This document shows, piece by piece, positions 31,216 through 40,019 of a stretch of DNA of 40,154 nt. Position 1 is the stretch's first letter, and each line of letters begins with the position of its first letter. A program made the translations under genes and the position numbers. Below the pieces are notes generated by a model. It did no database searches and was not told the origin of the DNA. It saw only the letters and a list, made by a program, of their open reading frames with translations. The stretch comes from Candidatus Pacearchaeota archaeon (GTDB lineage: Archaea; Nanobdellota; Nanobdellia; Pacearchaeales; GW2011-AR1), in assembly GCA_050124795.1 (NCBI GenBank), contig JASFEO010000011.1, forward strand, positions 1 through 40,154, in the 5' to 3' direction.

Positions 31216-31353
31216 TTAATGTTTTTTTATAGTGAAGCCGCATTTAGTGCATTTCCATTTTTCAAAAACATCTTCTTTAAATGAAAATGGAACTAAATAA
31301 CCTTCTTCGCATTCGTAGCACTTTGGGAAAATACAATTTTTATTTTCTTCCAT
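31216..31353 (-). CDS. Small Zn-ribbon protein (45 aa, not in ORF track)
   Basis: MEENKNCIFPKCYECEEGYLVPFSFKEDVFEKWKCTKCGFTIKKH*; two CxxC motifs. Confidence 0.7.
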   Translation of the reverse strand: MEENKNCIFPKCYECEEGYLVPFSFKEDVFEKWKCTKCGFTIKKH

Positions 31354-31445
31354 GATTTAGGTAAAATATTTTTGTTTATAAGTTTTTGGATTTTTTAGAC
31401 TTTGTGTAGAAAGTCCTGAAACAAGATTACTTTTTACACAGTTGT

Positions 31446-31940
31446 TTACATGAAGGGGAATTCCCCTCCGTTATTATTTAGTATGTATCCTAATTCCATG
31501 GCTACATTATCAAATAATATACTCACAGCATCTTTATTATCTGAATACAGTTCATTAAATACAGTTTTATTAGTGTTAACATCATCCGTAAATTCCACCC
31601 CCAAAGACCCAGCTTCTTTTATTAATCCATAAATTTCATTTCTTGTTATATTATAGTTTAAATTATGTGCAAATCTGTTTCTAAGAGTATTCATTTTATT
31701 TAAGAAGACTCCAAAATCTTTTTTTATTAATCCTAAACTTATCGCTAATTCTACTTTTTTTGGGAAGGATATATCAAATAAATCTATTGATTGTGGATTA
31801 TTTAATTTTGTTTGTATAGTCTGGACTAAAGTATATTCAATTATAAGTTGACCAATAATGACCCTTTCTAAGAGAGGGTTTGTTTCACGAAGCCCAAGCA
31901 AATCATCTAATCCAGGTGCCGTTTTATTTTTTTTACTCAT
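31446..31940 (-). CDS. HEPN-like (MtlR-like) protein, putative RNase
   Basis: E..L...I, F..K..LA..LGLI, LRNRFAH (RxxxxH). Confidence 0.7.
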   Translation of the reverse strand: MSKKNKTAPGLDDLLGLRETNPLLERVIIGQLIIEYTLVQTIQTKLNNPQSIDLFDISFPKKVELAISLGLIKKDFGVFLNKMNTLRNRFAHNLNYNITRNEIYGLIKEAGSLGVEFTDDVNTNKTVFNELYSDNKDAVSILFDNVAMELGYILNNNGGEFPFM

Positions 31941-31964
31941 CTTCCTTCACACTCCCAGCAAAAT

Positions 31965-32450
31965 TTATTTCTTCTCCTTCTTAGATTTAGATTCTTCTTT
32001 CGCACAAGAACTACACTCTTCATCGTGGCAAAGAACTTTTCCACATTTCTTACATTTATTTAATTCATCTGTAACTTCCTTGAATTCAATCTCTACACCT
32101 GGACCGTCTTTGTTAGTCTGTGGAAAATTAATAATAATTCCTTTTTTCATTTTCAAAACTTGTAAATACTTCTGAAGCTGAACTTCTTCTTTGATTCCTG
32201 TTGATGTTGATGTAGCTTTAAGTTCAAGGATAATTTTTTCTCCACCATCATTATCTTTCACAATTAAGTCTGGTCTTGAAGTTCCAACAGCAAAGTTCTT
32301 GTAAAATATTGGAAGAACTCTTTGATTTTCATAAGGAATCTTAGCAAGTCTTAATCCAACTTCCATTGCTTTCTCATAGACTTCTTCATTGTATCCACTT
32401 CCAAGAGTTTCAAAAACATCTTCTGCGATTTTTCTTATTTTTTCTATCAT
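31965..32450 (-). CDS. GxxExxY PD-(D/E)XK-like protein with C-terminal Zn finger
   Basis: LGSGYNEEVYEKA, RPDLIV, ILELKA, QL..YL, G.IINF; CKKC...CSSC tail; GGAGG RBS. Confidence 0.88.
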   Translation of the reverse strand: MIEKIRKIAEDVFETLGSGYNEEVYEKAMEVGLRLAKIPYENQRVLPIFYKNFAVGTSRPDLIVKDNDGGEKIILELKATSTSTGIKEEVQLQKYLQVLKMKKGIIINFPQTNKDGPGVEIEFKEVTDELNKCKKCGKVLCHDEECSSCAKEESKSKKEKK

Positions 32451-32495
32451 TGTTTTACCTCCTGTGATTTAGTTAAGTTTGATTTAATTAACTTT

Positions 32496-33638
32496 TTAAG
32501 AGATTGTAATTTTGAAAAGGTTATCTATTCTATCTAAAATCTTAAATAAAATTTCTTTAATATTATTAATAGCATCAAAATCTTTAACAATTTTCCTCAT
32601 TTCTTGATTCAATTCAAATTTAGGAATATCCACTATCTTTAATATTTCTGTTAAAGGGAATACAGATAAATCTGCACTTGAACTATTTTCTTTGAAGATA
32701 GGATGTAAATATAATGATAAAAATTTTAAATATATTCCTTCATCTTCTTCATTTTTTATATTAAGCATTTTTCTTGCATCCTTTTTTATGCACAATAACA
32801 TTGAATTAGTGTTTGTAGCATAATTATCTTTTTTTAAAAACCTAATTTCTCCAGCATTTCCTCTGGTTATCACTTGAAGACAAGATGAATCTTTAATAAA
32901 ATGGAGGTTTTTATTAAATGGGACTATCCCATAAATATCCTCAAAAGAACCAGATAAGACTATAATTTTCTCTTTATTATTTTTTAATCCTTGACTCCTT
33001 TTATATATGCCTTCTTCAGACAAAGAATCATTTCTACTAATATGCTTTAAAATATTTGACAAAGGTATTTTTTCTTTTTCATCTTCTATCAAAAGGTATT
33101 TATTTTGAAGAGAATTTATCCTTGACAATATCTTATAAATGTTGTCTTTTATCTTACTTAAATTTGTATATTTCTCTGCAAGTAAATCTTGTTTATCTTT
33201 ATCAATTAAAGTGAATACTATCTTCTTAGCAGTATCTTGATAAAGTTTTCCTTGAGTACCTTTAGAATAAACATTTTGATAAAAATTGTTTTGCTGTGAA
33301 AATAAAAACCATTGAAGATTTACTTTTCTAAAAAAATCTTTTTTCAATCTCAAAACTCCACATACATCTATTGGAAAAAATTTATAATTTCTATAAAAAA
33401 GCTTTCCAGCATAACCTTCTTTTGTCCAAGTTATTGTTTCTCCATCAAAAAGTTTTCCTTGTTTTCCTAACCATTTCTCTTCAGCATACCAGCTTATACC
33501 CTTACCTAAAGATTTAGAGGTAACTACTGGGATATTCCCTAAATGTTGATAAACCTCTCTTTCAGTAATCCTCTTTCCAGTTTCAACATCAAAGACCTCT
33601 TCTATTTCATAATCTTGGTTATATCCTCTGAATACCAT
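32496..33638 (-). CDS. Restriction-modification specificity (S) subunit
   Basis: Two TRD-like halves separated by helical spacers; G..IT...., GYAG..F, Q..L; directly downstream of the MTase. Confidence 0.8.
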   Translation of the reverse strand: MVFRGYNQDYEIEEVFDVETGKRITEREVYQHLGNIPVVTSKSLGKGISWYAEEKWLGKQGKLFDGETITWTKEGYAGKLFYRNYKFFPIDVCGVLRLKKDFFRKVNLQWFLFSQQNNFYQNVYSKGTQGKLYQDTAKKIVFTLIDKDKQDLLAEKYTNLSKIKDNIYKILSRINSLQNKYLLIEDEKEKIPLSNILKHISRNDSLSEEGIYKRSQGLKNNKEKIIVLSGSFEDIYGIVPFNKNLHFIKDSSCLQVITRGNAGEIRFLKKDNYATNTNSMLLCIKKDARKMLNIKNEEDEGIYLKFLSLYLHPIFKENSSSADLSVFPLTEILKIVDIPKFELNQEMRKIVKDFDAINNIKEILFKILDRIDNLFKITIS

Positions 33639-33639
33639 T

Positions 33640-35700
33640 TTAAATTTTAAAATTTAATAGTTCTTTTTGAATTTTTTTAATTTCGGAATCAAATTCTCTT
33701 TCACTGAGATATTTTGTTTTATAAGGTCTAAGATAATACTCTGGTAATAGAGTACAAAATTTATCTGAATCTATTTTTTTGATTATTATAAAATCACCTT
33801 TTCTTTTTTCTTGATTTATTCCTTTTTCATCTATCCATTTAGTTTTATTAGTTTCTGAATCTTGAAAATTCATCCATCTTTCTTCTAAAATTCCTGTCAT
33901 TTCTTCCCCATTCATGCTTACCCATCCTGAGATTTCATCATGCATCCACCCATTTCTATTATTTCTTAACCTTGTGGGAAATCTTTTATCAGAATTAGCT
34001 AAACCATCATTATCTATTATGTACATCCAGATTGGTTTTGTTTGTATTTTAGTTATTTTATCGCTTCTTTTAGTCATAAATAATGCATAGGTTTTCTCTT
34101 TTGTATATGGTGCAAAAGCAAATTTTGGCATAGAGATAATTGCATCAATATCACATTGCTCTAATAATCTTCTCCTTAACATTTCAAAACTTGGGTTTTC
34201 AAGAACTCCATCAGGAAGAATTATACAACATTTCCCCCCAACCTTCAATAAAGAAATTACTCTAACTAAGAAAGCTATTTCTTTTCTGTTTGAAGTAACA
34301 GAATCTGTCTCTGCTTTTATAGTCCCATTTCCATATGGGGGATTTGTAATTATATAGTCAAATTTTTTAATTCCAAAATCTGTTTTTAAAGAATCCTTAT
34401 ATTTTATATTAGTATGCCCATCACCCACTAAGAACATATTAAGTTTAGTTCTTAGAATATTATCATTTTGATTATCATGACCATAAAAACATTCTTTTGA
34501 TAAAAACTTTTCTGCGGATTTATTATAGGTATCAGTTCTCTCATAATTTTTCTTTAAAACCTTAAACCCTTCTGTTAAGAATCCTCCAGTTCCACAGGCA
34601 GGGTCTAAAATTGTAAATTTTTTATTGTCATCAAAATATTTTTCTTTTTCTAATAAAAGTTTAACAAATATCTGGGCATAATGTCTTCTTGTAAAGTATT
34701 GCCCAAACTCTTTTTTTTCTTTACTTGAAGCGAACATCTCATAAACAGAACCAAATAAATCAAAACCACTATTGTGTAAATTTCCCATAGAAGAAAGAAT
34801 ATCATAAATCCTTCTAACATCAATTTTATCAACAGGAGAGGGTTTACCTTCATTACTTGTTATAAAAAATATTACTTTACTTAATAGTTCTTTAAATCCA
34901 TAAAAATCAGTATCTTTTATTAATCTTTTAGAATACTGAACAAGATTTCCAACTAACTTCGTATCGTTCTTATCATTACAATTATCCCAATAAAGTTCAT
35001 TTGCATCTATTTTTCCTTCAATTTTTTCTTTATCTTCGTAAAATTTTAATGAGATAAAGCCAATAGTAAAATCAATTTTTTCTTGGTCATTTTTAAAACT
35101 TATATCTCTATAAATCGTTGCTAATTCCCATAATTTTTTGTTAAAAACAGCCTCAGAAATTGCAGATAAAGAATCTACATTAGTCTCAATATTTTGTAAA
35201 GAAGAATTTTTTTTAAGTTTAGCTTTGATTAACCTTAATATATCTATATTCTGAAATTCCCTTATAATGTTTTTATTTAATGATATTTCTTTACCTGTAG
35301 CTTGATTATAAAATTTTGAAGTTTTACAATTTGTTACAATAAAATATGGTAAATTGAGTTTGGCACTTTTTTCCTTTCCCTGTTTTATGGCATCTTTCCA
35401 GTCTCTATCATCAACTGTGCAATTATCTTTTACTTCTGCATAAGCGACTAAATTTGTTATATACTGGTCTTCATTATTCCCTTCAAAATCAAATTCAGAA
35501 ATCAATAAATCTGGTCTTTTTGAGCCAGTATATTTTTCAAAAGAAGTATCTATCACAATTTGCCTTGGGTTTATACTTAATTGTTTTACTAAAACCTCGT
35601 CTATTAGCCTATATACACTTAAAGCTTCTCGCTTTTTTTTCTTAACCATTTTTGAATAATATTCAAAAGAATCTTTGGTATTTAAACTTGCCGATTTCAT
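33640..35700 (-). CDS. Fused endonuclease-N6 adenine methyltransferase (Type IIB/BcgI-like or HsdM-like)
   Basis: N-terminal RPD...AEVK nuclease motif; FGQYFT, ILDPACGTGGFL, NPPY. Confidence 0.88.
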   Translation of the reverse strand: MKSASLNTKDSFEYYSKMVKKKKREALSVYRLIDEVLVKQLSINPRQIVIDTSFEKYTGSKRPDLLISEFDFEGNNEDQYITNLVAYAEVKDNCTVDDRDWKDAIKQGKEKSAKLNLPYFIVTNCKTSKFYNQATGKEISLNKNIIREFQNIDILRLIKAKLKKNSSLQNIETNVDSLSAISEAVFNKKLWELATIYRDISFKNDQEKIDFTIGFISLKFYEDKEKIEGKIDANELYWDNCNDKNDTKLVGNLVQYSKRLIKDTDFYGFKELLSKVIFFITSNEGKPSPVDKIDVRRIYDILSSMGNLHNSGFDLFGSVYEMFASSKEKKEFGQYFTRRHYAQIFVKLLLEKEKYFDDNKKFTILDPACGTGGFLTEGFKVLKKNYERTDTYNKSAEKFLSKECFYGHDNQNDNILRTKLNMFLVGDGHTNIKYKDSLKTDFGIKKFDYIITNPPYGNGTIKAETDSVTSNRKEIAFLVRVISLLKVGGKCCIILPDGVLENPSFEMLRRRLLEQCDIDAIISMPKFAFAPYTKEKTYALFMTKRSDKITKIQTKPIWMYIIDNDGLANSDKRFPTRLRNNRNGWMHDEISGWVSMNGEEMTGILEERWMNFQDSETNKTKWIDEKGINQEKRKGDFIIIKKIDSDKFCTLLPEYYLRPYKTKYLSEREFDSEIKKIQKELLNFKI

Positions 35701-36944
35701 TTCACTTTTTCAATAACAAACTCTCCTTTCAAACCAAGTTCATTTATTTCCTGAATCACAACACAAATATTATGAGCAAGAACTTTACAAAGCAATTCAT
35801 TAGTTTGTGCCGTCGATGATTTACTCCTTAAATTATCTTTAAACTTCGTCTTAATCATATGAAAGCAAGTTTCAATATTACTTCTTTTATGATACCGTTC
35901 TAAAAACTCGTCGTGCTTGTAAATAAAATAATGATACATCTTTTTCCATGCAGAAGAACTTGCCCTTTTTCCTCGGACATTTGATTTAAATGGGATGAAG
36001 GGCAAAGCCCCTACATCCTCTATGAGCTGTAAATTCTCACGAGAAGAATAAGCTCGGTCACAACTCACTTCCTTCACCTCAAAGTTTTTTACAGTCTCTT
36101 TTATTAATGAAGAAAGTTGAGGACTATCATTTGAAAAGCCTTCTGTAATTTTAACAGAAGTAATAATATTTGTTTTAACTCCAGCCATTGCATGACATTT
36201 AATCCAAACCCTTTGTTTCTTTTCCTTGCCCCATTTGTGGTCAAACCACCTTGAAAATCTTGAAGTTGAAAACCCTGTTGAATCAACTGCAAAATCAAAT
36301 TCAACTTCTTTCAATGGCAAAGAACTTAATTTAATCAGATTAAGTAAAATCGGAGTTAGTTCTTTTTTCTGCAAGAAATGCCCAACAGAAGCATAACAAG
36401 GCAGAATTTCAATTAAACCCATTTCTTTTGCTATTTTAACATCAGACATAAATCTTCTTAATGAAAATGTTGAATAAATTTTCATAACAGAATTAAAAAC
36501 CATTTCAGACATTGGGAGTGTTGGTCTTCCAAATCCATATTTTGGTTGCTCAATATAATTTGTCAAATCCTTCAACAACTTCATAAAATAAATTTTTTCG
36601 TTTGTTTGTGACTTATCATAAGCTTTCCATTTTTGTTCATAAGTAATCTTAACACCTTTTCTTTCTGTTAACTTTCCTTCTTCGTCAATTTCTTGTCTAA
36701 TGTAAAACTCAACTGCCCAAATATGTTTACACTTCTTTTTCCTCATAGTGCAATCTGGACAATCACAATAAGGATTATGCCCCTTGAATCTAACTCTGTA
36801 TTCTTTACTTGGATTTGTCTGAGACCCAACTCTCCAAGTATGATGAGCAGTCTTTTCTATCTTAACAGACCTAACTAAGAGTTTCCCTCGCTGTTCTCTA
36901 TCAAGTTTCTTCCAGTTTATTTGTTCTAATTCTTGCCTTGTCAT
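35697..36944 (-). CDS. IS4/IS5-superfamily DDE transposase with N-terminal SWIM zinc finger
   Basis: CDCPD.....KCKH SWIM; AVDSTG, CDRAY, YHKRSNIETCFHMIK (Y-2-R-3-E-6-K). Confidence 0.92.
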   Translation of the reverse strand: MTRQELEQINWKKLDREQRGKLLVRSVKIEKTAHHTWRVGSQTNPSKEYRVRFKGHNPYCDCPDCTMRKKKCKHIWAVEFYIRQEIDEEGKLTERKGVKITYEQKWKAYDKSQTNEKIYFMKLLKDLTNYIEQPKYGFGRPTLPMSEMVFNSVMKIYSTFSLRRFMSDVKIAKEMGLIEILPCYASVGHFLQKKELTPILLNLIKLSSLPLKEVEFDFAVDSTGFSTSRFSRWFDHKWGKEKKQRVWIKCHAMAGVKTNIITSVKITEGFSNDSPQLSSLIKETVKNFEVKEVSCDRAYSSRENLQLIEDVGALPFIPFKSNVRGKRASSSAWKKMYHYFIYKHDEFLERYHKRSNIETCFHMIKTKFKDNLRSKSSTAQTNELLCKVLAHNICVVIQEINELGLKGEFVIEKVK

Positions 36945-36956
36945 TTTTTATATAAT

Positions 36957-36994
36957 TCGGTACCATACATACTTTATATACTTTTCGGTACCAC
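36957..36994. promoter_or_regulatory. Paired TCGGTACCA operator boxes around the transposase TATA box
   Basis: GGTACC at 36959 and 36987 flanking TTTATATA. Confidence 0.65.
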
Positions 36995-37066
36995 CATAAA
37001 TATATTAGAATTCATATATTAAATTCATTCTTATAGAACTAATTTTAGAATTACCAAAAAGTTAAA

Positions 37067-37228
37067 TCACTCTTTTTCAATAACTATCTTACCTTTTTCG
37101 GCTTTGGCTTTGAGTTTTTTCCCTTCCAACTTAGATTCTTTGATAACTTTTTCTGGAAGAGAACTTATGATATATTTGAAATATTCTTTATCGCCTACTT
37201 TTTTGTTTAGATTCTTTACAATCTTCAT
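37067..37228 (-). CDS. Small AbrB-like regulator (53 aa, not in ORF track)
   Basis: MKIVKNLNKKVGDKEYFKYIISSLPEKVIKESKLEGKKLKAKAEKGKIVIEKE*; LP..V....L.G.....GKIVI pattern. Confidence 0.65.
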   Translation of the reverse strand: MKIVKNLNKKVGDKEYFKYIISSLPEKVIKESKLEGKKLKAKAEKGKIVIEKE

Positions 37229-37233
37229 AATAA

Positions 37234-37272
37234 TAGGTACCATAATAAATTATATAAATGTATCGGTACCAT
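37234..37272. promoter_or_regulatory. Paired GGTACCAT operator boxes around the AbrB-like gene TATA box
   Basis: GGTACC at 37236 and 37265 flanking TTATATAAA. Confidence 0.65.
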
Positions 37273-37279
37273 AAAATTA

Positions 37280-37597
37280 ATGGTAAAAGATGAAAGGGAA
37301 GAATATGAAAAGATTAAAGATAACACAGAAACAGGTTTTGAGACAACTACTGATAAAGGGCTTGTTCAGGTAATGGATTTTAAGTTACCTTCGTATTTTT
37401 CCCAAAATGATTTTACTGAGCAAACAAAAAAAATAGAAAGAGCCAAAATTGAGATGAATAGAAGACTGAGAGTTTCTATAGAGAGATTTAACAAACAATC
37501 TTCAGAACAATCAAATAGGATATTTTGGCTTACTATTGCTATGATTTTATTAGGGTTTGCTCAAACATTATTTTTAATCTATTCTATTTTTAAGTAA
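37280..37597 (+). CDS. Hypothetical protein with C-terminal TM helix
   Basis: Coiled coil followed by hydrophobic IFWLTIAMILLGFAQ. Confidence 0.7.
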   Translation: MVKDEREEYEKIKDNTETGFETTTDKGLVQVMDFKLPSYFSQNDFTEQTKKIERAKIEMNRRLRVSIERFNKQSSEQSNRIFWLTIAMILLGFAQTLFLIYSIFK

Positions 37598-37700
37598 TAA
37601 ACCAACCTTACTCTCAATCCAGCTCAGTACGAAAAGTAATTAATATCCGATAACTGTCCGAATAAGAAAAGTATAAATAATCTTTTTAGTTTAGAAAATT

Positions 37701-37835
37701 ATGGAAGAAAATTTTAAATGCCCTGATTGTAAGTCTTCCTTATTCCATGTTGAAATTTTGGGTAACGGAAGGTATTTGTTGAAATGTTACAAGACAAGAG
37801 AATGTGGTTGGAAGATTGAGTTAAAAGAAGAATAA
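37701..37835 (+). CDS. Small Zn-ribbon protein (44 aa, not in ORF track)
   Basis: MEENFKCPDCKSSLFHVEILGNGRYLLKCYKTRECGWKIELKEE*. Confidence 0.65.
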   Translation: MEENFKCPDCKSSLFHVEILGNGRYLLKCYKTRECGWKIELKEE

Positions 37836-37868
37836 AAAAATAAAAAATTATCTTCTCTTAAAACTTGA

Positions 37869-38021
37869 TTACAAGAGCAACCAAGCCAATTGAAGTCCAG
37901 CTCCGACAAGCACAAGCCAACCAGCTCCTGCTATTCCTAAAAGCATACCAACCCCTCCAAGAGCAATTGCAATTGCAGGTGGGCTTTTAGCCACAACTGA
38001 GACCATAGTATTAACAACCAT
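37869..38021 (-). CDS. Small Gly/Ala-rich hydrophobic peptide (50 aa, not in ORF track)
   Basis: MVVNTMVSVVAKSPPAIAIALGGVGMLLGIAGAGWLVLVGAGLQLAWLLL*; GAGGT RBS at 38031-35. Confidence 0.6.
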   Translation of the reverse strand: MVVNTMVSVVAKSPPAIAIALGGVGMLLGIAGAGWLVLVGAGLQLAWLLL

Positions 38022-38115
38022 GTTTAATTTACCTCATTTCAACTGGAACCTTTTGGAAAAGTATTTAAAGAAGTAACTTCTTTAGATTATAATATTGGGT
38101 TATAATCATACTTAT

Positions 38116-38147
38116 CTGAAGATGATAGATTCGTCTATCATCTTCGG
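38116..38147. other. Perfect 12-bp stem with TTCG tetraloop
   Basis: GAAGATGATAGA-TTCG-TCTATCATCTTC (38118-38145). Confidence 0.8.
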
Positions 38148-38244
38148 GGTTCTTTTGTTTTACAATAATTAATTGGTTTATATAATTTTTGCGAGAGCAT
38201 ATTTTACAAAAAATCTATAAATTAGCTTTTATTAAAGATTCATT

Positions 38245-38394
38245 ATGGCAAAAAAAGAAAGTATTTTGGATGAGATATTGAAAGCAGGTTTAATACTCGG
38301 TTCTATATGGCTTGGGGCAGAATTTTTAAAGAGTTTGTCAGAAGATAAAGAAGAAGGAGGGGATTATGGTGCAGGAACGCAACCTCCAGTTTAG
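38245..38394 (+). CDS. Small amphipathic/TM peptide (49 aa, not in ORF track)
   Basis: MAKKESILDEILKAGLILGSIWLGAEFLKSLSEDKEEGGDYGAGTQPPV*; TATA upstream; overlaps next ORF. Confidence 0.5.
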   Translation: MAKKESILDEILKAGLILGSIWLGAEFLKSLSEDKEEGGDYGAGTQPPV

Positions 38395-38599
38395 GTCAAC
38401 AAAAGCATTTATTGGTTTAATACTTTCTATGATTGCAACAGCGATTCCAGTTGTTCTCATAATCTCTATATTCATAACAAATGGATTTGTCCAAGTTATC
38501 TCTGTTTGCGGTTTATTACTTATCTTTGTAATCTTAGTTAATCGTGATTATAAAGAACTAAAATTATTGTGGAGTTCAGGAATTCATATAAGAAGATAA
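38366..38599 (+). CDS. Small 2-TM membrane protein
   Basis: GGAGG RBS; two hydrophobic helices. Confidence 0.65.
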   Translation: MVQERNLQFRSTKAFIGLILSMIATAIPVVLIISIFITNGFVQVISVCGLLLIFVILVNRDYKELKLLWSSGIHIRR

Positions 38600-38866
38600 A
38601 ATATCAATCTTACTCTCAATCCTATCAAGCTGTTCATTTCTCCTTAATCTTCTTCTTACAAATTCAGCAATACTTATCTTCTGTTCTTTTGCCTGTCTCT
38701 CAACTTTATTCATAAGTGAAGTTTCAAGCAATAAATGAAGATGTGAATTTTTCTTTTCAGTAATTGGTTTTTCATATCTCTCATTATCCTTAATTCTTCT
38801 TTCAACCAACTGACCAATTTCTTCCATCTGCACAATTAAATTATCCATTCTTTCTTCAAGTTCCAT
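38576..38866 (-). CDS. Ribbon-helix-helix-like DNA-binding protein
   Basis: HLHLLLETSL...V...AK....SIAEFVR. Confidence 0.65.
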   Translation of the reverse strand: MELEERMDNLIVQMEEIGQLVERRIKDNERYEKPITEKKNSHLHLLLETSLMNKVERQAKEQKISIAEFVRRRLRRNEQLDRIESKIDILSSYMNS

Positions 38867-38924
38867 TGTTTAGAAATGTTTAATAAGAAGAAATGAATTG
38901 TTGTTATGGAGTATATAGATTAAA

Positions 38925-39461
38925 ATGTTTGCAACAACTCCTAAGGAAATTAATGGAAAAATAACTGAATTTTGTAAAGAAATAGATTCTACAACAAAAC
39001 CTATCTTTGTAGAACTATTGCATGTTGAAGATTATATCTGTGGGGAATGTTATGGAAATGTAGATAATCATATTAGAAAACACGGAGGGGATATTCAGTA
39101 TGGGTGGATAATATGGGAACATCCTGATGTTTTACTTGATGCAGAATTTCATGCAGTATGGGTTGATGATAAAGGGGAATATATTGATGTAACTCCAAAA
39201 GTTGATGGTGAAAAAAAGATATTATTTCTCCCAGATAGTAAAAGAGTCTTTACAGGAGAGGAGTTGATTGACAACATCAGAAAACCCCTTGTAGATAATG
39301 ATTATACAAAACTTATAATTAAAACATCCAGGGATGGCTTTGAAATGAAGAATAAAGCATACAAGGAATTTCTCAAACCTAAGAAAAGGAAAATTGGAGT
39401 AAATGAACCTTGTCCTTGTGGAAGTGGTAAGAAGTATAAAAAATGTTGTAGGACTCTTTAA
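38925..39461 (+). CDS. SEC-C motif protein with possible Cys-His-Asp (papain/transglutaminase-like) core
   Basis: EC..NV, GW.IW, AEFHAVW, IDVTP; C-terminal NEPCPCGSGKKYKKCC. Confidence 0.85.
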   Translation: MFATTPKEINGKITEFCKEIDSTTKPIFVELLHVEDYICGECYGNVDNHIRKHGGDIQYGWIIWEHPDVLLDAEFHAVWVDDKGEYIDVTPKVDGEKKILFLPDSKRVFTGEELIDNIRKPLVDNDYTKLIIKTSRDGFEMKNKAYKEFLKPKKRKIGVNEPCPCGSGKKYKKCCRTL

Positions 39462-39636
39462 TTAAACTTTTTACACAGAAGCTACTTTATACACAAAGCC
39501 GATTTTTTGTTGTGTTGAAAACCTCTTGGTATATGAAATTTATTATGGTGAATTCCCTTGCAAAATATTTCGGATTAATTTCTCAGATTTTTCTTGTTTT
39601 AATATATCTAAAATTTTTTGGCCTGGCTGATTCAAC

Positions 39637-39804
39637 TTACTTACTGATTGCATTAACAGGGCAGGATTTAATAGCTTCATCCACGCATGGCAAATCTTTT
39701 TGTTCCTTTACATGTGACTTGCCATCTTTAACTTCAAAAACTTCAGAGCAAATCTGTCCGCAGGTTCCGCAGCCAATACACTTCTCTTTGTCTACTTTTA
39801 CCAT
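39637..39804 (-). CDS. Monocluster ferredoxin (55 aa, not in ORF track)
   Basis: MVKVDKEKCIGCGTCGQICSEVF...CVDEAIKSCPVNAISK*. Confidence 0.92.
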   Translation of the reverse strand: MVKVDKEKCIGCGTCGQICSEVFEVKDGKSHVKEQKDLPCVDEAIKSCPVNAISK

Positions 39805-39854: not shown

Positions 39855-40019
39855 TTATTTTATTGCATCAACAGGGCAGGCTTCAATTGCTTCTTTAACG
39901 CAATCGTCGTCTTTCTGCTCTTTTATTTTTGCTATGCTGTCTTTCATTTCAAAAACTTCAGGGCAAATGTGTTCGCAGGTTCCGCAGCCAATGCATAAAT
40001 CTTCATCTACTTTTACCAT
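39855..40019 (-). CDS. Monocluster ferredoxin (54 aa, not in ORF track)
   Basis: MVKVDEDLCIGCGTCEHICPEVF...CVKEAIEACPVDAIK*. Confidence 0.92.
   Translation of the reverse strand: MVKVDEDLCIGCGTCEHICPEVFEMKDSIAKIKEQKDDDCVKEAIEACPVDAIK

Follow-up and report, generated by a model that had tools for sequence, protein, structure and literature searches.

The window analysed here is the whole of contig JASFEO010000011.1 (contig C11; 40,154 nt), which belongs to the genome of a Candidatus Pacearchaeota archaeon (1,061,509 nt in 38 contigs, estimated to be approximately 90% complete). Between positions 31398 and 39500 lies a segment of 8,103 nt that is bounded by inverted repeats and a short direct duplication, and that encodes a single transposase together with the genes of a restriction–modification (R-M) module and other passengers. 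From the DNA letters and translated open reading frames (ORFs), the original prediction had proposed that this segment is a cargo transposon driven by one transposase combining a SWIM zinc finger with a DDE catalytic domain. The features of the locus are as follows (protein lengths in amino acids, aa; L numbers denote loci of related elements).

31216-31353, minus strand: flanking host gene for a 45-aa zinc-ribbon protein, whose promoter edge the element appears to have targeted; ATG 44 nt from the element tip.
31389-31397: target-site duplication, left copy (GATTTTTTA), matching the right copy at 8 of 9 positions where 29 relatives have perfect 9-nt duplications.
31398-31414, plus strand: terminal inverted repeat (IRR) of the end farther from the transposase start, with a GA tip where the family has GG.
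31429-31440, minus strand: second, subterminal TGTGTANAAAGT, 26 nt from the terminal copy and in the opposite orientation; L025, L026, L029 and L030 share this arrangement with a spacing of 26-27 nt.
31446-31940, minus strand: passenger of 164 aa with weak, sub-threshold HEPN-like matches in Pfam (HEPN_RiboL-PSP, E 7.8e-4; HEPN_Cthe2314, E 3.8e-3).
31965-32450, minus strand: GxxExxY passenger of the PD-(D/E)XK superfamily with a Cys-rich C-terminal tail (PF13366, E 7e-27; TIGR04256, E 8e-25).
32496-33638, minus strand: passenger, HsdS-like specificity subunit of the R-M module (PF01420, E 1.6e-12; PADLOC Specificity_I, E 7e-12).
33640-35700, minus strand: passenger of 686 aa in which a PD-(D/E)XK-type motif is fused to a gamma-class N6-adenine DNA methyltransferase (PF02384, E 3e-36; PADLOC MTase_I, 190 bits).
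35697-36944, minus strand: sole transposase, 415 aa, with an N-terminal SWIM finger (C60, C62, C72, H74) and an IS5/IS903-like DDE domain (D221, D296, E358; Y351-R354-E358-K365).
36959-37271: divergent promoter region with four copies of GGTACCA, a candidate operator.
37280-37597, plus strand: passenger of 105 aa with a hydrophobic C-terminus and no Pfam family.
38366-38599, plus strand: hydrophobic passenger of 77 aa with no Pfam family.
38576-38866, minus strand: passenger of 96 aa with a weak, sub-threshold CopG/ribbon-helix-helix-like match (PF12441, E 1.8e-3).
38925-39461, plus strand: passenger of 178 aa with a C-terminal SEC-C metal-binding motif (PF02810, E 8e-9).
39466-39477, minus strand: second, subterminal TGTGTANAAAGT, oriented as the terminal copy and lying 18 nt inward of it; the 18-nt spacing recurs in L026 and L030.
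39484-39500, minus strand: terminal inverted repeat upstream of the transposase (IRL), with the family consensus GGCTTTGTGTATAAAGT.
39501-39509: target-site duplication, right copy (GATTTTTTG).

The transposase gene occupies the middle of the segment, as had been described, with 4299 nt separating it from the left end and 2556 nt from the right. About 12 passenger genes had been predicted, a number that we revise downwards to eight ORFs of at least 75 aa plus two doubtful ones of 50-58 aa. The G+C content is 27-30% inside the element versus 30-36% in the upstream flank. The description of the cargo as defence genes holds with confidence only for the R-M module, whereas the right arm has no assigned function. 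In the fused enzyme the methylase domain is clear and the specificity subunit is separate, possibly a Type IIB layout; the nuclease part rests on the residues D64, E89 and K91 together with a weak HSDR_N_2 match (E 4.4e-3). Across an alignment of 10 cargo enzymes from related elements this N-terminal motif is near-invariant, and one of those enzymes gives a significant match to the HSDR_N nuclease domain. Sequence matches of the 686-aa protein in the PDB are to type I M subunits and to RM.BsaXI. Its ATG overlaps the stop codon of the transposase gene (ATGA), and the nuclease-methylase and specificity genes are predicted to be translationally coupled to the latter. The GxxExxY passenger shares 82% identity with a passenger of the related element L026, and no PADLOC match was obtained for the HEPN-like passenger. 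Four of the seven copies of GGTACCA in the genome (at 36959, 36987, 37236 and 37265) fall between the transposase and the right-arm genes, and this cluster may serve as the operator for an element-encoded regulator. Pfam, tRNA and Rfam scans gave no integrase, tRNA or Rfam match in or beside the element, and with the tRNA and Rfam scans empty a tRNA-integrating island was ruled out.

The 17-nt terminal repeats and the 9-nt duplication are both present as originally claimed. The left end (GACTTTGTGTAGAAAGT) matches the reverse complement of the right end at 15 of 17 positions, and the flanking 9-mers agree at eight of nine. The right end starts with GGCTTTGT and the left end, which differs by one change, with GACTTTGT; a further G/T difference is found within the terminal repeat. 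In a genome of 30% G+C, inverted ends and a 9-nt repeat are weak evidence on their own. A genome-wide scan for inverted 17-mers (at least 15/17 identity, 8-nt seed, 1-15 kb apart) returned 15,364 pairs. A flanking 9-mer repeat matching at 8/9 or better accompanied 13 of them, the window element included, and two of these 13 are a contig-end artefact on contig C25. Such a combination alone would bracket a given gene by chance in roughly 1 case in 10. Likewise, a degenerate 17-mer pattern allowing up to three mismatches gave two matches in the window against an expected 0.37, a score reached by five of 100 shuffles. The 12-nt motif TGTGTANAAAGT is far more discriminating. It occurs four times in the genome, twice at each end of the element (31403 on the plus strand; 31429, 39466 and 39484 on the minus strand), with no copy anywhere outside the two ends, and the reversed control sequence occurs once in the same 1,061,509 nt. 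It is this restriction of the motif to both ends, together with the homologous transposases found in elements of the same end architecture, that decides the reading of the window. As a separate observation from the repeat scan, each end of contig C25 (9,587 nt) is the reverse complement of the other across 119 nt or more with a single mismatch, for which faulty assembly is the likeliest cause.

Homologues of the transposase are numerous. At least 5,573 proteins scored at E ≤1e-3 among 8,000 candidates, and clustering at 50% identity gives 880 clusters with E ≤1e-30. Identity to the window protein is 64-100% for the best 120, some of which are named as Pacearchaeota transposases. We fetched 80 loci with up to 10 kb of flank each (81 with the window) and scored an element as complete when both of its tips read G[AG]CTTTG, its two ends agreed at 12 or more of 17 positions and its flanks at 7 or more of 9. 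Complete elements were verified in 30 of the 81 loci, the window included, and they carry varying cargo. Of these 30, all except the window copy have a perfect 9-nt duplication. Their sizes range from 1,802 to 11,371 nt, with 29 of at least 3 kb, and in the 29 other than the window element the terminal repeats match at 12-17 of 17 positions. GG is found on both tips in 26 of these 29, the GA tip recurring in L061, L062 and L076. A further complete element, L026, stayed outside the count through a single terminal-base change, and the census figure is a lower bound.

The original prediction would have been undermined had the homologous transposases been closely bordered by repeats unrelated to those of the window. 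What we found instead is that relatives at 63-74% identity share the same terminal GGCTTTGTGTATAAAGT and the same two-motif layout at ends that lie several kb away from the gene and are flanked by perfect 9-nt duplications. Upstream of the transposase, the end has two direct copies of the motif 18 nt apart, and the opposite end has two inverted copies 26-27 nt apart. This architecture with perfect duplications was seen in L025, L030 and L051, and also in L026 apart from its terminal-base mismatch. Members labelled as Chloroflexota have the same design with a motif of their own, for example GGCTTTGCTCCAAAAGT with a repeated TTGCTCCAAAAG. The family had been placed in DPANN archaea, where it does occur; members are also present in Methanomicrobia and in metagenome-assembled genomes (MAGs) labelled Chloroflexota and Acidobacteriota, so that the setting is wider than proposed.

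The transposase was said to join a SWIM finger to an IS4-type YREK domain, and the affiliation requires correction. The residues C60, C62, C72 and H74 (CxCxnCxH) are invariant across 26 aligned homologues of 45-100% identity, as are D221, D296, E358, Y351, R354 and K365 (the Y-2-R-3-E-6-K signature), so that both the finger and the catalytic signature stand. The catalytic domain matches PF01609 (DDE_Tnp_1; E 4e-21 in Pfam). Among 11 transposase models, however, the best from NCBIfam is the IS5 equivalog NF033579 (126.2 bits over profile positions 26-287 of 289), and the IS4 model reaches 50 bits. The best matches among annotated plasmids are IS5-family transposases of Acinetobacter such as ISAha3, whose own transposase is 41% identical to that of IS903B. 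In pairwise alignment (26% identity, E 1e-12), residues 99-404 of the window protein correspond to residues 7-302 of the ISAha3 transposase (310 aa), the catalytic D, D and E coincide, and residues 1 to approximately 98 have no counterpart. Read directly, the ISAha3 end starts with GGCTTTGTTGCA and is accompanied by a 9/9 target duplication; the IS903B end is GGCTTTGTTGAATAAATC, and both start with GGCTTTGTTG. On the basis of these ends, the first eight inverted-repeat bases and the 9-nt stagger are held in common with the IS903 group. An AlphaFold model of the transposase (mean predicted local distance difference test score 77.6) has three strands followed by helices at residues 29-83, and for its catalytic portion the fold search gave the transposases of ISCth4 and Tn5 (E 8e-5 and 5.5e-4; template modelling scores 0.30-0.39), that is, a DDE transposase fold. 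Direct searching of the sequence against solved structures gave only chance-level matches (E ≥0.3). The gene is single-copy and is the only transposase gene in the genome. The protein is thus best described as an IS5/IS903-like transposase with a predicted additional SWIM finger at its N-terminus. We also observed that the transposases of L051 (9998-10969) and L058 (10001-10957) start at approximately residue 94 of the window protein, without the SWIM region; their elements (11.4 and 8.6 kb) have perfect duplications and three end motifs instead of two.

The family nearly always carries cargo. The sole verified copy without it, which is also the only one of insertion sequence (IS) size, is L035 (7596-9397; 1,802 nt); because this copy has a perfect 9-nt duplication, the transposase and the ends appear to suffice as an IS. 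A DNA-methylase-like ORF was detected by BLAST against annotated seeds in 21 of 31 elements and is missing from 10. Individual elements differ considerably in content. L025 has a methylase, an S subunit and a PD-(D/E)XK nuclease (Pfam), L026 a nuclease-methylase with a GxxExxY gene, L048 a C5 methylase and L075 an N4/N6 methylase. L051 carries a type IIG enzyme, a DUF4268 protein and a UvrD helicase with a Cas4-like nuclease; L040 carries a Thoeris-type TIR protein. In L030 (12220-15948) the place of the R-M genes is taken by a HerA-like ATPase, NurA and an archaeo-eukaryotic primase (AEP) domain of the 'TOTE conflict system'. None of the other 30 elements has a homologue of any of the four right-arm passengers of the window. 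The nearest relative of the transposase gene, L024 (262-1507; 84% DNA identity), matches the window only at 35700-36947, which is the transposase ORF, and since the similarity stops there, cargo is likely to be exchanged at the borders of the transposase gene.

We then considered where these elements insert. On the minus strand of the window, a BRE/TATA-like sequence (B recognition element and TATA box; CAAAAAC-TTATAAA, 31372-31388) lies between the ATG of the zinc-ribbon gene and the duplication, the latter being 7 nt upstream of TTATAAA. This box stands at the distance that would be expected for a leaderless archaeal gene. In a related genome (G002), the zinc-ribbon protein has an orthologue (74% identity over 42 aa) whose gene lies beside that for the orthologue of the 356-aa neighbour, the two being convergent there as well, which indicates that the 45-aa ORF is real. 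There the zinc-ribbon gene has AAAACTTTTAAAC upstream and the stop codon of another gene 33 nt before its ATG, and no island is present. Since the upstream neighbour is a different gene, this is a soft and not an exact empty site. The gene for the 356-aa protein is present in 13 of 41 related genomes (own included), and in the nine loci fetched the zinc-ribbon gene lies alongside it only in G002. The flanking pair without an island in G002, and the sharing of the transposase ORF alone with L024, argue against the internal genes being a stable syntenic part of the chromosome. In the contigs of the single public run that holds this stretch no junction of 31397 to 39510 was found; one long contig, resembling the source, covers the element there, so that the run is uninformative. 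To the right of the element, and apart from the question of targeting, there are two tandem genes for 4Fe-4S ferredoxin-like proteins of 54-55 aa (39637-39804 and 39855-40019, minus strand), contained within a 215-nt direct repeat whose segments are 79-91% identical.

The position beside a promoter recurs in the family. A T-led 7-nt A/T run lies 6-8 nt beyond the duplication on at least one flank in 22 of 23 archaeal elements; the background in these loci is 3.1% per position. The positive flanks number 13 on one side and 11 on the other, two elements being positive on both. Among these 24 flanks the spacing to the box is 6 nt in 14, 7 nt in nine and 8 nt in one, and 17 have an outward ORF of at least 40 aa starting with ATG within 150 nt, 11 of which start 43-45 nt from the tip. 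The stricter TATA pattern applied first was found in 13 of the 23. None of the eight bacterial elements has the run at this register. Of these eight, which are labelled Chloroflexota, six (L056, L061, L062, L066, L076 and L077) instead occupy the 9-nt centre of palindromes of the CCCTCTCC...GGAGAGGG type, a difference suggesting that bacterial members use another kind of target. L038 and L040, both with promoter-edge targets of the archaeal type, are on contigs labelled as bacterial MAGs (Fusobacteriaceae and Acidiferrales); these labels could reflect mis-binning or transfer between the domains.

From these results it is very probable that the segment from 31398 to 39500 is one non-composite transposon of 8,103 nt belonging to an IS903-related family within the IS5 family. 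It has one transposase, one outer pair of inverted repeats, no flanking IS copies and passengers unrelated to transposition, and the proposal of a unit transposon with a single transposase is borne out by the end motifs, by ends that are conserved throughout the family and by the perfect duplications of the relatives. In the mechanism that we envisage, the transposase would bind the terminal and subterminal copies of TGTGTANAAAGT, probably through the SWIM-containing N-terminus that IS903-type enzymes lack, pair the two ends, cleave at the GG tips and insert the element with a 9-nt stagger. The chemistry would follow that of IS903, which is mainly cut-and-paste with occasional replicative events. 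The target would be the DNA just upstream of an archaeal promoter, recognized through the BRE/TATA sequence or as DNA bound by TBP and TFB; the CTTTATAAAG-like sequence of the box resembles the element's own TGTGTATAAAG. Insertion at this upstream edge would leave both the neighbouring genes and the promoter intact in a gene-dense genome. Through post-segregational killing the R-M module would in turn stabilize the element, and it would also protect the host; the transposon would provide the module with mobility, and the coupled operon of transposase, methylase and specificity genes suggests mutual benefit. The leucyl-tRNA synthetase (LeuRS) of the host, a DPANN archaeon, has a best non-self identity of 69%, its named matches being from Pacearchaeota, Woesearchaeota and Nanoarchaeia, whereas relatives of the transposase reach 87-88%, and from this difference we infer that horizontal spread has been faster than host divergence.

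Several observations weigh against this interpretation, in addition to the comparable repeat structures elsewhere in the genome. The SWIM match (PF04434) scores 17.9 bits, below the gathering score of 19.6, and a precomputed match to this family exists for seven of 120 listed homologues; the NF033579 score lies below the curated IS5 cut-off of 140. Verified elements are missing from 51 of the 81 loci, many of which are short contigs or have diverged ends. No exact empty site or second copy was found in the contigs of the one public run, in relatives or in the genome itself. The binding of the motif by the SWIM region, the cut-and-paste chemistry and any restriction activity are all predictions. 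With respect to targeting, the widened TATA pattern was set after inspecting the flanks, and the nominal P of 3e-24 is consequently too small. Survival bias in compact genomes could also contribute to the pattern. The promoter-edge effect is nevertheless large, despite the post hoc definition. Finally, the GA tip on the left and the 8/9 duplication mean that the window copy is itself possibly immobile.

This last point leads to the most serious alternative, namely that the window copy is a true member of the family and yet a fossil, immobilized by the tip mutation with drift in the duplication, and now a fixed accessory island whose R-M genes are kept by selection or addiction. We regard this as a real possibility, though one that we would on balance lean against. 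It accounts for the GA tip, where GG stands at both ends of 26 of the other 29 verified elements, and for the only imperfect duplication among the 30; the terminal repeats match at 15/17, compared with 12-17 in the others, and the presence of a single copy in the genome is also in keeping with it. Against this, the transposase ORF is full-length with all invariant residues retained, and L061 and L062 have a GA tip on one end and yet perfect duplications, so that the change may be tolerated. Judging from the GA tip, the G/T difference between the repeats and the 8/9 duplication, the window copy is probably an older insertion than its relatives, and it may have lost mobility.

It is also conceivable, but very improbable, that the transposase has been domesticated as a defence component of the R-M operon, with the repeats persisting as relics or regulatory sites. 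The overlap of the transposase stop with the methylase start would fit such a role, and L039 has the same 4-nt overlap. However, 29 relatives have fresh, perfect 9-nt duplications at different sites and with different cargo, 10 of the 31 elements are without a methylase-like ORF, and the cargo-less L035 still has its perfect duplication. We give practically no credence to chance inverted and direct repeats around an ordinary genomic island of other origin (integrase or recombination) with a degenerate IS inside it. In its favour, 13 comparable structures occur in the genome, and two hits with the 17-mer pattern are reached by five of 100 shuffles. The end motif, however, is confined to the two ends, homologous elements in other genomes retain both the sequence and the layout of these ends, no inner inverted repeats lie beside the transposase, and the scans for integrase, tRNA and Rfam matches in or beside the island were empty.

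If the segment is accepted as a transposon of the IS903-related family, its closest known counterparts are IS903/IS903B and ISAha3, members of the IS5 family from enterobacterial and Acinetobacter plasmids, with which it shares the DDE_Tnp_1 domain and GGCTTTGT ends. ISAha3 has a 9-nt target duplication like the window family, and IS903 itself also makes 9-nt duplications. These IS903-type elements are approximately 1.05 kb long and encode a transposase of approximately 310 aa alone, whereas the window element is 8.1 kb long with eight passengers. Its transposase has approximately 98 additional N-terminal residues with the SWIM finger, each of its ends has a second, subterminal copy of the motif, the two ends are arranged differently and, in its family, insertion is biased towards archaeal promoter edges. 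In having one transposition set and passengers between a single pair of inverted repeats, the element resembles transporter IS (tIS) and unit transposons such as those of the Tn3 and Tn7 families. The family differs from Tn3 and Tn7 in its single IS5-type DDE protein, with no resolvase, TnsB/C/D or target selector, in its 9-nt rather than 5-nt duplication and in its archaeal hosts. Its cargo is enriched in R-M and defence genes, a trait reported for Tn7-like elements as well (PMC8649781). The R-M genes of the window recall Type IIB systems (BcgI, BsaXI) in combining a putative nuclease-methylase fusion with a separate specificity subunit (match to RM.BsaXI, 8w0p, 54 bits) and in placing a D...ExK motif ahead of the methylase domain; they differ in that the best matches are to type I M subunits and that only one target-recognition domain was detected in the S subunit.

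The suggestion that the element is possibly undescribed has held up: in the full-text literature, taken without supplements and without the ISfinder and TnCentral catalogues, we found no description of a SWIM-bearing IS5/IS903-like cargo transposon. Other archaeal elements were considered as possible prior descriptions and set aside. The aloposons of Heimdallarchaeia are likewise archaeal transposons with cargo genes, but are otherwise unrelated in so far as the available portion of PMC8813620 portrays them: they integrate at tRNA genes and have two giant proteins and a ParA-like ATPase, with no IS5-type transposase. The mobile genetic elements of Atabeyarchaeia, from what is given in the corresponding portion of PMC11529989, are unrelated and tRNA-integrating, and those of Thaumarchaeota appear in the part of PMC6563490 concerned as IS-like transposons of 1-2 genes. 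The available text of a 2026 survey of archaeal IS (PMC13343696) contains no occurrence of SWIM, passenger or IS903. Viral contigs gave no match to single-protein patterns, a method that detects close relatives only, so that absence from viruses is not implied. The family is apparently undescribed, and a catalogued or unnamed member is possible. Relative to the literature, the novelty lies in a relative of the IS903 group that acts as a cargo transposon, has gained a zinc finger and a second site at each end, and inserts at promoter edges.

A broader proposal is that these elements constitute a distinct, unnamed class of cargo transposon derived from IS903-like elements, in which the SWIM transposase reads the archaeal promoter (the BRE/TATA sequence or the TBP/TFB complex) at a fixed register of 6-8 nt, the Chloroflexota branch has been retargeted to palindromic repeats, and R-M or defence cargo is the rule. 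In our judgement the case for this whole proposal is evenly balanced.

To our knowledge, non-composite transposons that carry sets of genes, although well known in bacteria, are scarcely documented in archaea, and we know of nothing that has been established about the route by which defence genes pass between gene-dense DPANN genomes. The family described here offers one such route, in which an IS903-type transposase with a zinc finger and doubled ends moves 1-10 kb of exchangeable cargo, mostly R-M genes. If the fixed promoter-edge register is mechanistic, it would provide a natural system in which to study how a transposase recognizes promoter DNA or the archaeal pre-initiation complex, and it would account for the spread of a large mobile element through genomes that have hardly any spare DNA. 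The broader proposal, if true, would establish a promoter-edge 'safe-harbour' mode of targeting, which we do not know of for any prokaryotic DDE transposon, and would give the family a major part in carrying defence genes from one DPANN archaeon to another and between archaea and bacteria.

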